Shown: positions 8,936 through 13,984 of the stretch, one piece after another
How the letters are laid out: each line of letters starts with the position of its first letter
How positions within the stretch are numbered: the first letter of the stretch is position 1
Source of the DNA: an uncultured Actinomycetes bacterium
GTDB taxonomy: Bacteria; Chloroflexota; Dormibacteria; Aeolococcales; Aeolococcaceae
Direction of reading: 5' to 3'
DNA length: 64,000 nt
Assembly (NCBI GenBank): GCA_964618935.1
Contig: CAZUDL010000006.1
Coordinates: 71,874 to 135,873 of the forward strand
Notes under the pieces: model-generated
Told to the model about the DNA's origin: nothing
Database searches by the model: none
The model's input: the letters and a program-made list of their open reading frames with translations, nothing else
Position numbers and translations under genes: made by a program

Positions 8936-8939
<4 letters not shown>
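8301..8939 (-). CDS. tsf: translation elongation factor Ts
   Basis: [48 protein letters not shown]-like N-terminus plus EF-Ts core. 212 aa. ATGA overlap with rpsB stop. Confidence 0.9.
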
Positions 8940-9856
<917 letters not shown>

Positions 9857-10027: not shown

Positions 10028-11365
10028 TCACTCCGGGGGTGGCTCGGGCGCGCCGCGGGCTCCCGCGCCCCGACCCCGACCGGCGCCGCGGCTCGGTGCG
10101 GCGGGCACCGGACGCCAGCCGGCGCCGTCCCACCAGTGGCCGCCGTCCTCCGAGCGGGGAGCGCCCGGCGGGACCTCTCCCGCCGCGTCCCTCCACCCCG
10201 AGCCGTCGAACCAGCGCTTGCCGTCAGGCGAGAGGGTGCCGACCGGCAGTGTCGAGACGGGGAGCCCCGGGGTCGCTCGCGGCAGGCCGGCGCCCTCCCC
10301 CTCGAAGAACATGACGCAGCCGCCGACGCCGAGCAGCCCGGCGAGGCCGACGCCCACCCAGAAGCCCCATCCGGGGCTCGTGCCGAGGACGCCCCCGTTC
10401 GAGGTCACCCAGTTGAGGACGAAGAGGCCGACCTCCACGGCGGCGAAGAGGACCCAGATCAGCGCCTCGGGCACGGGAAGGCGCAGGCGCACCTGGGGCA
10501 GCCGGCGGATCACGAAGAAGAGCAGGCCCCCCACCAGCAGCAGGGCCGGGAGCAGTCCCAGACCGGACCAGAGAGAGCCGAAGAAGTAGGTCGACGCCGG
10601 ACAGCTCGGAATGTAGGGAAGCAGCCCTCCGCGAATGATGGGGGGGCTGACCACGCACCCCACGCTCGCCTGGAACCAGGTGCCGACGAAGGAGAAGGCG
10701 AAGAGCGCGACGAGCGCCACGCCGGCGATCACCGCCCCGGCACGGGGACCGGCGGGGACCGGCCGCAGGGCGACGCCGGCCCCGAGATGCTCCGCCGGAG
10801 CTCCTGGTACGGCCGGCTGCCGGCCGCTGTCTCCTTGGATCAGCTCGAGGGCCCCGCCCGCGACGAGCAGACCACCCAGGCCGACGGCGACCCAGAACGC
10901 CCACCCCGGGGTCGCCATGGTCGAGGACAGGTACGGGGAGACGCCGGCGGGGCTGGGGATGACCCAGTACAGGAAGAGGAGGCCCGTCTCGACGACGCCG
11001 AAGACCATCCAGACCACGCCCTCGGGGATGGGCAGCGTCAACCGGACGCGGGACAGCCGCCGCACCACGAAGAACAGCATCGCCCCCACCAGCAGCAGCG
11101 CCGGCAAAAGGCCGAAGCCGGACCACAGGGTGCCGCCGGGCACCCATTCCGCGCAGATTCCGGTCCCGCCAGCGTAGATGGGCCCCGGGACCACCGGCTC
11201 CGGGCAGAACAGCTCCGTCTGGAACCAGGCGCCGACGAAGGAGAAGGAGAAGAGCAGCACCAGGGCCAGGCCGACGACCACGTCGCCGAACGAGGCGGAG
11301 ACGGCGTTGCGGACGGCGCTGTTGAGGTCCAGGGGCTCGCGCCCGGGCGGTGGTGTCGCGTCCAC
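10028..11365 (-). CDS. uncharacterised polytopic membrane protein containing two tandem copies of a ~150-aa 4-TM module plus W-rich C-terminal short repeats
   Basis: Internal duplication: FGDVVVGLALVLLFSFSFVGAWF...LWSGFGLLPALLLVGAMLFFVVRRLSRVRLTLPIPE versus AGVALVALFAFSFVGTWF...LWSGLGLLPALLLVGGLLFFVIRRLPQVRLRLPVPE. C-terminus has GKRWFDGSGWRD / GGHWWDGAGWRPVP repeats. No family recognised. Confidence 0.6.
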   Translation of the reverse strand: MDATPPPGREPLDLNSAVRNAVSASFGDVVVGLALVLLFSFSFVGAWFQTELFCPEPVVPGPIYAGGTGICAEWVPGGTLWSGFGLLPALLLVGAMLFFVVRRLSRVRLTLPIPEGVVWMVFGVVETGLLFLYWVIPSPAGVSPYLSSTMATPGWAFWVAVGLGGLLVAGGALELIQGDSGRQPAVPGAPAEHLGAGVALRPVPAGPRAGAVIAGVALVALFAFSFVGTWFQASVGCVVSPPIIRGGLLPYIPSCPASTYFFGSLWSGLGLLPALLLVGGLLFFVIRRLPQVRLRLPVPEALIWVLFAAVEVGLFVLNWVTSNGGVLGTSPGWGFWVGVGLAGLLGVGGCVMFFEGEGAGLPRATPGLPVSTLPVGTLSPDGKRWFDGSGWRDAAGEVPPGAPRSEDGGHWWDGAGWRPVPAAPSRGAGRGRGAGARGAPEPPPE

Positions 11366-11569
11366 TCTCGGTCCCTCGTGGGTGGGGCCGGCAGGCCCCT
11401 CACCCCCCGAACCTATAGCAGGCGAACCTGTCGTTTGGGTATCTCAGGCGTCACGAACTGCCGCCGAGGGCCTCGATGGCCCCCGAGATGTCGGATCCCG
11501 CCACCAATGCTCACGGCCCGCGAGGGCTCGCCAGGGTTGGGCGGTCCCGTGCGCGCCCCGTCAACCTCC

Positions 11570-12307
11570 TCAGGCAGCGTCACCAGCCGTTGCCGACGGT
11601 CTGAGGAACCTCACCGCCCCACCGACGACAAGGGCGGCGGCCAGTGCGACCGACATCCAGACCGGCCAGCCGGCGACCTTGACGGGCACGAGAACCCCCC
11701 CGGCCCCGGGGAAGGTTTGGCTCATGAAGTCCGTGAAGCCCACCACCTTGAGAAGCAGCAGGAGCCCAAGCTCGACAGCCCCGAGGCCGATCCAGACGAG
11801 CGACTCGCCACGGGAGGTGAGCCGCCGGACGTCGAAGGCCCACACCAGCAGGAACATGGCGAGGGCGGCCGCGATGAGCAGGGCCGGACTCGGACCGAAG
11901 GCGAGGAGCACCGCGACGTCCGTGACGGCCACGGCGATGCCGACCGCGGAGGCCCAGGGTCGGACCAGGCGCGGCAACCGTCGCAGGACGAAGAACATCA
12001 CCGCTGCCAGGAGGAGAAGCCCGGGCACGATGCCGAATCCCTCCCACAGCGAACCACCGGGGAACCCCTGGGGGCAGGCGGCAAAATAGTCGATGCACGG
12101 GTCGGCGGCGGTGCACCCCGCGGGAACCAAGTCGGGACAGGTCAGCGCCACCGGCAGGGACCAGGTGCCGACCAACGAGAGGCTCACCAGGGCGGCCAGT
12201 GCGAGGGCGATGATCACGTCGCCATAGGGGAAGCGGAGGAAGGCGTTCTGCCGGGTGGTCCCCGGATTCAGGCGCCGGCCCAAGGCCGGCGATCTCGCGT
12301 CCACCAT
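11570..12307 (-). CDS. paralogous single-copy 4-TM membrane protein (same module as 10028..11365)
   Basis: FPYGDVIIALALAALVSLSLVGTWS...TCPDLVPAGCTAADPCIDYFAACPQG...LWEGFGIVPGLLLLAAVMFFVLRRLPRLVRPW. Shares the LWxGxGxxPxLLLxxxxFFVxRRL core and the Cys-containing first loop. Confidence 0.6.
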   Translation of the reverse strand: MVDARSPALGRRLNPGTTRQNAFLRFPYGDVIIALALAALVSLSLVGTWSLPVALTCPDLVPAGCTAADPCIDYFAACPQGFPGGSLWEGFGIVPGLLLLAAVMFFVLRRLPRLVRPWASAVGIAVAVTDVAVLLAFGPSPALLIAAALAMFLLVWAFDVRRLTSRGESLVWIGLGAVELGLLLLLKVVGFTDFMSQTFPGAGGVLVPVKVAGWPVWMSVALAAALVVGGAVRFLRPSATAGDAA

Positions 12308-12439
12308 GCTGGCAACCCCCGTGGTGATCCGACCATCACCTCATCCCGGGCGCGGTATAGCAGAAGCCGGCGGGCTGTGTCTGCGAAAGTGGGGCGCCGG
12401 GCCGGCGACCCCGCCCCTCGCGTCTGGTAAGCCGCCGCC

Positions 12440-13984
12440 TCAGAGGATGTAGCGGCGCAGATCGTCGTTGCCGATGAGGTCGCGCAGGCGGTCGAGCACC
12501 ATGGCGCGGTCGACGACGACCTTCTGCCCGGTGAAGTCCTCGGCGCGGAACGACACGTCCTCGAGGACCTTCTCCATGATCGTGAACAGCCGGCGCGCGC
12601 CGATGTTCTCGTCCTCCTCGTTGACGCGGTATGCCTGATGGGCCAGCTCGGCGACGCCGTCGTCGGTGAAGGCGAGCTCGACGTCCTCCGTGCCGAGGAG
12701 CGCCTGGTACTGCCGGGTCAGGGCGTTGTTCGGCTCGGTGAGGATGCGGGCCAGGTCGTCCTCGCCCAGCGGGCTCAGCTCCACCCGGATGGGGAAGCGG
12801 CCCTGGAACTCGGGGATCAGGTCGCTCGGCCGAGCCACGTTGAAGGCGCCGGCGGCGATGAAGAGGATGTGCTCGGTCCGCACCGAGCCGTACCGCGTGT
12901 GCACGACCGACCCCTCCAGCAAGGGAAGCAGGTCGCGCTGCACGCCCTCGCCGCTCACGTCGGGGCCGCGATCCGGGGCGGGGCCGCAGATCTTGTCCAC
13001 CTCGTCCATGAAGACGATGCCCGCCTCCTCGACGTCCGCGATGGCGTCGTCGTACACGCGGTCCATGTCGATGAGCCGGTCGGTCTCCTCCTCGGTGAGG
13101 GCGGACCGGGCGTCGGCCACCGTCATGCGCTTCGACCGCTTCCTCGCCGGCGCCATCTGGGAGAAGAAGTCGGAGAGCGAGTAGCCGACCTCCTCGAGGC
13201 CGGTCCCGGTCAGCCCCTCGAAGGGCGGCTGGTACGGTTCGTCGACCTCGACCTCGATGTAGCGGTCCTCGAGCTGCTTGGCGCGCAGCCGGAGCGCGAG
13301 ACGGCGGCGCAGGCGCGCACGCTGGCGTTCGCGTCCGCCGCGGCCGGGGCCCGCCGCGGACGCCGCATCCGGCGGGCCCTCACCCACCGCGTCCGATACC
13401 GGCGACGCCTGCTGGCCGTCCGGGGCTCCTGCCACCGGCACGCTGGGCATCTCCGCCTCGAGGAGGATGTCGAGGATGCGGCTCTCCGCGACCTCCTGCG
13501 CCGTCTGCTCCACCTCGGAGATCCGCTCGTTCTGAACCTCGGTGATGGTCTGCTCCAGCAGGTCGCGGACGATGGCCTCGACGTCGCGCCCGACATAGCC
13601 CACCTCGGTGAACTTGGTCGCCTCGACCTTGATGAAGGGGGACGAGGTCAGCTTGGCGAGGCGGCGGGCGATCTCCGTCTTGCCCACACCGGTGGGACCG
13701 ATCATGAGGATGTTCTTGGGCAGGACCTCCTGGCGCAGCTCGTCGCTCAGGCGCCGGCGGCGCACCCGGTTGCGCAGGGCGATGGCGACCGAGCGCTTCG
13801 CCCCGGCCTGCCCGATGATGTAGGCGTCGAGGTGGCGCACGATCTCGCTGGGGCGCAGGTCATCGGCGTCCGCCGCCGCCGCCCCGTCTCCGGTCGCCTC
13901 CGGGGGCGCCGGCTCCGTGGCCCCGGACGGGTCGACCCTCTCCTGCTCTCCGCCGACCGGCGTGCTCACCGTCCCCACCGTCAC
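12440..13984 (-). CDS. hslU: ATP-dependent protease ATPase subunit HslU (CodX-like)
   Basis: [26 protein letters not shown]...[21 protein letters not shown] (Walker A)...[11 protein letters not shown] (Walker B)...RFPIRVEL. Putative GTG start overlaps hslV stop (GTGA). ~45-aa N-terminal extension and a basic insertion in the I-domain. The 900-aa ORF 12440..15142 is an artefact. Confidence 0.85.

Follow-up and report, generated by a model that had tools for sequence, protein, structure and literature searches.

Two adjacent genes, here designated A and B, that lie between hslU and rpsB in a 64-kb stretch of contig CAZUDL010000006.1 (~70% G+C; below, 'the window' means this whole stretch) encode real cytoplasmic-membrane proteins, both built from a rare tetraspan module of ~170 amino acids (aa) that is found in few lineages. 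The source organism is an uncultured soil bacterium of the Candidatus Dormibacteria, and the module – present twice in tandem in A and once in B – thus defines a previously unannotated membrane family of an uncultured phylum, with a predicted topology and a predicted structural role for its cysteines. As to function, our preferred reading, to which we assign a probability of roughly 0.45, is that the proteins serve as a disulfide-braced, non-enzymatic scaffold or as auxiliary membrane proteins with a cytoplasmic docking tail. The genes and their parts are listed below, with transmembrane helices of the module numbered TM1 to TM4.

10028–11365, minus strand: gene A, encoding 445 aa; a tandem pair of four-helix modules, followed by a short linker and by a Trp-rich tail that is predicted to be cytoplasmic
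10808–11341, minus strand: module 1 of A, residues 9–186, as delimited by the hidden Markov model (HMM) envelope, hydropathy and an AlphaFold2 (AF2) model; it consists of an N-terminal amphipathic helix, TM1, the Cys loop (C46/C63, module numbering), TM2, the RRLSRVRLTLPIPE loop, TM3 with a buried Glu, outer loop 2 and a Gly-rich TM4
10274–10795, minus strand: module 2 of A, residues 191–364, 50% identical to module 1
10103–10234, minus strand: Trp-rich tail of A, residues 378–421, running from LSPDGKRWFDGSGWRD to PPGAPRSEDGGHWWDGAGWRPVP; two divergent DUF2510-like repeats, predicted to be cytoplasmic
11570–12307, minus strand: gene B, encoding 245 aa; a single module, which has four Cys in its loop and six transmembrane helices, and no tail
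11813–11962, minus strand: extra hairpin in B, residues ~116–165; repeats the TM3-like and TM2-RRL-like segments

The first-pass annotation of this stretch had described a ~150-aa module repeated three times at 35–45% identity. The threefold repeat holds at both the protein and the DNA level, while the figures need revising: the identities are 41–50%, and the unit, which comprises four helices, is ~165–178 aa long. When compared by BLASTP with compositional adjustment, the two halves of A (residues 1–190 and 191–375) align over 170 aa at 50% identity (E = 2e-25), module 1 of A aligns with B over 114 aa at 41% identity (E = 1e-14), and module 2 of A aligns with B over 57 aa at 42% identity (E = 9e-11) with an additional C-terminal piece, and so the similarity is well backed by alignment statistics. 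An HMM of the module, searched against the six-frame translation of the window, detects exactly these three copies and no others. At the DNA level, a direct repeat of 174 nucleotides (nt) with 73% identity connects positions 10407–10580 with 10962–11135, and a 73-nt unit recurs in each of the three modules; these direct repeats support an origin by tandem duplication. The core that had been noted earlier, LWxGxGxxPxLLL...FFVxRRL...LPxPE, can be read directly in the alignments. Protein B had been taken for a plain four-helix copy, and it does contain the module, but it matches the module HMM twice (positions 2–120 and then 72–178) because its TM2-RRL-TM3 hairpin is internally duplicated, which accounts for its six transmembrane helices. 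A separate observation concerns the 261-aa homologue P0003, from a 1159-bp Logan contig: relative to P0002, it joins the N-terminal half of module 1 to the C-terminal half of module 2, with the junction precisely at the conserved LLPALLLVAALLFF core, and may have originated either by unequal recombination altering the number of modules or by collapse of a short-read assembly.

Every module follows the same order. An amphipathic N-terminal helix (xLDLNxAxRN) precedes TM1 (GDxxxGLxLxLLFxFSFVGxW), a loop of 20–40 aa lacking Lys and Arg, and TM2 (LWxGxGxLPALLL), after which come a basic loop (RRLPxVRLxLPVPE), TM3 with its buried Glu (AVE), a second loop lacking Lys and Arg, and a Gly-rich TM4 that is initiated by PGW. 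Because Lys and Arg occur exclusively in the N-terminus, the TM2–TM3 loop and the linker or tail, and are absent from the Cys loop and from loop 2, hydropathy and the positive-inside rule predict that both termini are cytoplasmic and that the Cys-containing first loop faces outwards, as the first-pass annotation had it. Among 30 diverse modules, S34, W39, W73, G77, P104, G146 and G162 are nearly invariant, as is the GG at the end of TM4. Glu118, located in the middle of TM3, is present in 21 of the 30 and lost from the whole of the most distant clade, and no polar transmembrane residue is conserved family-wide in this set; in the core clade, both this Glu and the RRLPxVRLxLPVPE loop, which is predicted to be cytoplasmic, are conserved.

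The first outer loop carries two Cys in each module of A and four in B, in agreement with the two to four noted earlier. Of a broader set of 39 modules, 25 have two Cys in this loop, 11 have none and two (B and its paralogue) have four, and the one odd count is an artefact of the regular expression, which captured a Cys inside TM1. Since the numbers are even and all-or-none (0, 2 or 4), the pattern indicates structural disulfides. A metal site, the other role that had been put forward for these residues, is unlikely given that 11 of the 39 modules have no loop Cys, and the pattern does not fit a catalytic site either. In the AF2 model C46 lies three residues past strand 40–43 and C63 three residues ahead of strand 66–69, a register in which a C46–C63 bond would close the hairpin.

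The tail of A consists of two repeats of the form S-x-DG-x-x-W-[WF]-DG-x-x-W-R, separated by PPGAPRSxDG, and the same tail ends many single-module homologues, where it follows a Pro-rich linker. While the W-rich short repeats at the end of the two-module protein had been correctly spotted, they are not novel: they constitute a divergent pair of DUF2510 (PF10708) repeats. Nine of 11 aligned family tails match this model (best E = 1.8e-5), the motif is readable in all tails, and the resemblance of the W-[YWF]-DG-x-x-W core to DUF2510 holds throughout the family, with the tail repeats aligning to positions 10–34 of the 35-position model. What differs is that the repeat here stands at the C-terminus as a pair separated by a fixed PPGAPRSxDG spacer, and that the protein from the window stays below the Pfam cut-off of 24 bits, scoring 12.1 bits in the context of whole A and 17.3 bits (E = 0.0039, in two stretches) as an isolated tail. 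Our literature search on DUF2510 returned nothing relevant. The same Trp-rich tail is found on an unrelated protein, P0007 (L006:6001–6918), which is composed of an N-terminal ectodomain and one transmembrane helix and is encoded between genes for the large and small subunits of an aconitase-family enzyme (leuC/leuD-like). There, the tail comes directly after the transmembrane helix and an RRRR stretch, which supports its cytoplasmic location; as it is also carried by this unrelated protein, we take the tail to behave as an independent and mobile domain that is predicted to be cytoplasmic. It is also found in small open reading frames (ORFs), one of them from a metagenome-assembled genome (MAG) of Chloroflexota. 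An orphan DUF2510 repeat is in this way linked to a predicted cytoplasmic tail position.

The first-pass annotation recognised no Pfam family in the module, and neither do we: scans of A and B with the Pfam, NCBIfam and PADLOC models leave the module unassigned, and a Pfam scan of 30 modules and 10 distant full-length homologues returned no family, with only scattered, non-recurrent matches below threshold (DUF1129, DUF4064, DUF7937 and MARVEL). The PADLOC models of anti-phage defence effectors do not match A or B at E ≤ 1, and remote-homology searches yielded no confident assignment to a transporter or peptidase family; such an assignment would have refuted the first-pass proposal. DUF5336 (PF17270), the family of the mycobacterial 34-kDa antigen (Rv0954-type), resembles four of the homologues (P0021, P0023, P0030 and P0031) in having a Pro/Gln-rich N-terminus, four transmembrane helices and a Pro-rich tail, as well as a GWALWV-type start of TM4; in contrast to the module, it has neither the Cys loop nor the RRL...LPxPE loop. 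We rejected it, as Pfam finds no DUF5336 match in the 30 modules and hhalign gives a probability of 7% against an Rv0954-type sequence (confirmed by Pfam as DUF5336, E = 8.4e-25).

To describe how widely the module is spread, we rely on an exhaustive HMMER search of 1.84 billion representative proteins with the module profile, which retrieved 37 proteins at E ≤ 1e-3, 26 of them at E ≤ 1e-10; a word-indexed search recovered seven relatives of A and three of B. The 37 proteins carry one, two or three modules each, with or without the tail. Most homologues come from metagenome contigs, the sole taxonomic labels on module-bearing proteins or loci being Candidatus Dormibacteria and Dormibacteraeota, and a scan of a genome collection with a narrow alignment likewise found one Dormibacteraeota genome. 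The earlier description of a lineage-restricted envelope family therefore stands, in the sense of a membrane family. P0011 is a three-module protein, and the MAG from which the window derives encodes, outside the window and ~56 locus tags away, at least one further two-module paralogue (ABSA40_05205, P0046; cluster representative P0012). From the sequences, we consider the family to be expanded in the source organism.

The location between hslU and rpsB is as originally described. The claim that the modules had been 'inserted' into this housekeeping slot is, on the other hand, misleading, since two distant orthologues that consist of a single module and a tail (P0025 in L012 and P0020 in L013) hold the same interval. 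In L012 the order is topA-hslV-hslU-P0025-(CitMHS, opposite strand)-MerR-rpsB-tsf-pyrH-frr-uppS-cdsA-dxr, and L013 is similar; the gene immediately upstream of rpsB in these two loci (L012:9257–9826 and L013:9130–9630) encodes a MerR-family protein with an Rv1828_C domain, and no such gene is present between A and rpsB in the window. In a close relative, represented by the error-rich long-read contigs L004 and L007, the interval holds five modules, distributed over B, a B-like paralogue, a 182-aa single-module protein and A. Because the distant single-module orthologues occupy the same place, we read the module gene as an old resident of the hslU–rpsB interval that was expanded here by tandem duplication, and reject a recent insertion. 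The ancestor probably encoded, at this position, one module followed by a Pro-rich linker and two cytoplasmic DUF2510-like Trp repeats; tandem duplication in this lineage then gave rise to the two-module A, which kept the tail, and to the tail-less paralogue B, in which one hairpin was subsequently duplicated. The housekeeping interval from hslU to rpsB is thus shown to harbour a membrane gene that is conserved, specific to the lineage and enlarged through tandem duplication. Across the genomic contexts examined no partner gene is conserved, and other paralogues reside in unrelated neighbourhoods. In one subclade (L014:7763–11669 and L016:7813–10913) the gene for a single module plus tail is followed by genes for two conserved large proteins without a Pfam match, which are 36% and 41% identical between the two loci; the first is ~550 aa long with a hydrophobic N-terminal anchor, and in L014 a 181-aa gene follows the pair. 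These large proteins are possible partners of the module protein in that subclade, and neither of them is encoded in the window.

A first AF2 model of the module, made from nine sequences, reached a predicted local distance difference test score (pLDDT) of 67 and gave Foldseek matches at E > 0.4 to mixed families. The final model, made from a 30-sequence alignment, has a pLDDT of 85.6 and a predicted template-modelling score of 0.79 (pLDDT of 56–72 at the centre of loop 1), with helices at residues 18–33, 75–96, 107–127 and 147–173 and strands at 40–43 and 66–69 in loop 1 and at 142–145 in loop 2, just before TM4. A Foldseek search of the PDB with this single module, as the first-pass annotation had proposed, returned only claudin-superfamily chains among the best 50 matches (TARP gamma-2/3/5/8, claudin-3/4/9/15/19 and GARLH4), with probabilities of 0.97–1.00, nearly full-length alignments and no transporter. 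In a HMMER search of PDB sequences with the module profile, TARP gamma-8 ranked first (E = 0.042, 16.6 bits) with TM2–TM4 in register. Four transmembrane helices with cytoplasmic N- and C-termini, as in the claudin superfamily (claudin/PMP22/TARP (stargazin)/LHFPL), are predicted for the module by hydropathy, the positive-inside rule and AF2 alike. Shared features further include a first outer loop that is large and carries a pair of Cys, a Gly/Trp-rich start of TM4, and a C-terminal tail that in the module is predicted to be cytoplasmic and would bind a partner; the loop-1 strands and the strand before TM4 are predicted to form a small outer sheet, a possible counterpart of the claudin sheet. 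The module differs in being bacterial and tandem-fused, in having an extra N-terminal amphipathic helix, and in that its tail is DUF2510-like and not a PDZ-binding motif. We therefore describe the architecture as predicted to be claudin-like.

According to our preferred reading, each module would begin with a short amphipathic helix at the cytoplasmic surface and then cross the membrane four times, both termini being cytoplasmic. Its first outer loop would form a disulfide-closed hairpin that pairs with the strand before TM4, creating a small sheet that caps the helix bundle. The modules would pack laterally within the membrane and serve as a non-enzymatic scaffold or as auxiliary subunits, the two- and three-module fusions and the rows of paralogous genes being the equivalent of covalently linked oligomers; they would present a disulfide-braced surface to the envelope, and the Trp-rich tail would recruit a cytoplasmic partner. 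The lack of Pfam, NCBIfam or PADLOC matches, together with the lack of a family-wide polar transmembrane residue, makes an enzyme or a transporter the less favoured type of protein.

Several results weigh against this reading and against the comparison on which it draws. The neighbourhoods differ between family members and there is no known partner protein, and the conserved intramembrane Glu and the Gly-rich TM4 would suit a small channel or carrier as well. The fold itself rests on prediction, and the Foldseek matches are modest, with E values of 3e-3 to 3e-2 (none reaching 1e-3), template-modelling scores of 0.42–0.53 and root-mean-square deviations of 5–11 Å. By hhalign the similarity is non-significant (probabilities of 3.8% for stargazin and 1.8% for claudin-4), in a comparison of low sensitivity that used single, unvalidated template sequences. 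The claudin models of Pfam (PF00822 PMP22_Claudin, PF13903 Claudin_2 and relatives) match neither A nor B at E ≤ 10 and none of the 30 modules at E ≤ 1. Loop 1 of claudins bears the signature W-x-GLW-x2-C-x8-10-C, with a disulfide, whereas the module has W-x5-7-C-x5-25-C-x5-9-LW-x-G-x-G, in which the Cys pair comes before the LW; similarly, the outer sheet is predicted to have 2+1 strands versus 4+1 in claudins. Given the non-significant hhalign result, the different loop-1 signature and the modest E values and template-modelling scores, membership of the superfamily is not established.

To our knowledge, descriptions of claudin-type tetraspans are confined to eukaryotes, in which these proteins make up tight junctions, myelin and the auxiliary subunits of receptors; a literature search on bacterial claudin-like proteins and on membrane proteins of Dormibacterota found nothing relevant. 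It is quite possible, if short of an even chance, that the claudin resemblance is convergent or generic, and that the module is a long-looped bundle of four helices, unrelated to claudins, whose likeness to them has no functional meaning: this would account for template-modelling scores of only ~0.5, for Foldseek E values above 1e-3, for hhalign values below 4% and for the motif order unlike that of claudins. It sits less well with the fact that the best matches come exclusively from one superfamily, MARVEL, tetraspanin, connexin and MS4A bundles having appeared only with the poor model, and that a search using sequence alone independently puts TARP gamma-8 first. The opposite reading, in which the claudin/PMP22/TARP superfamily truly extends to prokaryotes through this module and Dormibacterota (and relatives) build lateral membrane assemblies or cell-envelope contacts from disulfide-braced tandem tetraspans that are anchored in the cell by DUF2510 repeats, strikes us as rather unlikely. 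Were it true, the claudin fold would predate eukaryotes. A bacterial family that shares the predicted architecture would offer a candidate for the evolutionary origin of the fold and a simple, modular system for studying tetraspan assembly.

Among functional alternatives to the scaffold or auxiliary role, a small ion channel or secondary carrier ranks first, followed by a sensor and then by a thiol oxidoreductase. In the channel or carrier case the modules would oligomerise or be fused into units of 8–12 helices, with a pathway formed by the TM3 Glu and the Gly-rich TM4, and the presence of Glu118 in most of the modules compared, the near-invariant GG of TM4 and the occurrence of two- and three-module fusions, typical of small oligomeric transporters, would all make sense; nevertheless, with the Glu lost in a whole distant clade, no Pfam or NCBIfam transporter family matched, none of the 50 best Foldseek matches to the confident model being a transporter, and a large disulfide-braced outer loop and a Pro-rich/Trp-rich tail that would be unusual for small carriers, we regard it as doubtful. 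A sensor role had been suggested by the first-pass annotation; as signal transduction across the envelope, in which the outer loops would sense a cue that the Trp-rich tail relays to a cytoplasmic factor, it could explain why a conserved cytoplasmic tail is combined with varied outer parts (the tetraspan modules and the unrelated ectodomain of P0007) and why a MerR-family gene stands between the module gene and rpsB in L012 and L013. We find it improbable: Pfam and NCBIfam detect no kinase, anti-sigma, cyclase, DNA-binding or other signalling domain in A or B, no regulator is adjacent in the window, the neighbourhoods of other members are unrelated, with no conserved partner gene, and B and several homologues have no tail. 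As for a membrane thiol-disulfide oxidoreductase of the VKOR/DsbB kind, the four-helix membrane core and the Cys pair in the first outer loop recall a bundle with redox-active loop cysteines, and VKOR occupied ranks 2 and 9 among the matches of the weak initial model (E = 0.6–1.5). This identity was rejected and is highly improbable, as the modules have no conserved CXXC column and no conserved CXXC at a helix end, the Cys are dispensable in a quarter of modules, and VKOR is missing from the 50 best matches of the improved, confident model.

The remaining features of the locus concern the flanking genes and the control regions of A and B.

12440–13858, minus strand: hslU, the upstream flank (NCBIfam TIGR00390, E = 1.2e-175); the coordinates are those of the part tested, and the true start lies slightly further upstream
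8936–9856, minus strand: rpsB (ribosomal protein S2), the downstream flank (TIGR01011, E = 3.3e-89)
12356–12363, minus strand: CTGCTATA 8-mer upstream of B
11414–11421, minus strand: identical 8-mer upstream of A; promoter-like (extended -10-like) element, with surroundings conserved in the relative L004

The order on the minus strand is topA, hslV, hslU, B, A, rpsB, tsf, pyrH, frr, uppS and cdsA, with a gap of 171 nt between the stop codon of A and rpsB; NCBIfam equivalog models agree on the identities of HslU, HslV, S2 and EF-Ts. The NCBI taxonomy places the class Candidatus Dormibacteria in the phylum Candidatus Dormiibacterota and the kingdom Bacillati, which fits the Bacillus-like gene order noted in the first-pass annotation. 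Protein A is 100% identical to the NCBI MAG hypothetical protein ABSA40_05490 [Candidatus Dormibacteria bacterium], and protein B matches ABSA40_05485, for which the NCBI call is 237 aa, i.e. eight codons shorter, with a start downstream of the ATG of the ORF. B and A have the start-region sequence GTGGACGCGA (Val-Asp-Ala) in common (12269–12307 and 11330–11365, respectively, both on the minus strand), and because the NCBI start lies eight codons downstream, the longer start of B is more likely.

A sigma-70 consensus scan found no promoter, and the terminator-like matches fall within the coding region and do not exceed chance level. The CTGCTATA 8-mer occurs only twice in the 64-kb window (0.1 occurrences expected), once ahead of A and once ahead of B, at ~45–55 nt from the gene start; we regard it as a probable extended -10-like promoter element, copied along with the gene. 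In the 5' leader of A (11366–11413, minus strand) a G+C-rich hairpin, GGGGCC-TGCC-GGCCCC, separates the promoter-like element from the GAGGGA ribosome-binding site, and this hairpin is conserved in L004. On the other side of A, ribosomal protein S2 matches NF051451 ('sunset domain variant') at 255 bits, far under the cut-off of 710, and carries at its C-terminus (8936–9180, minus strand) an extension of ~80 aa that is rich in Ala, Pro, Glu and Val.

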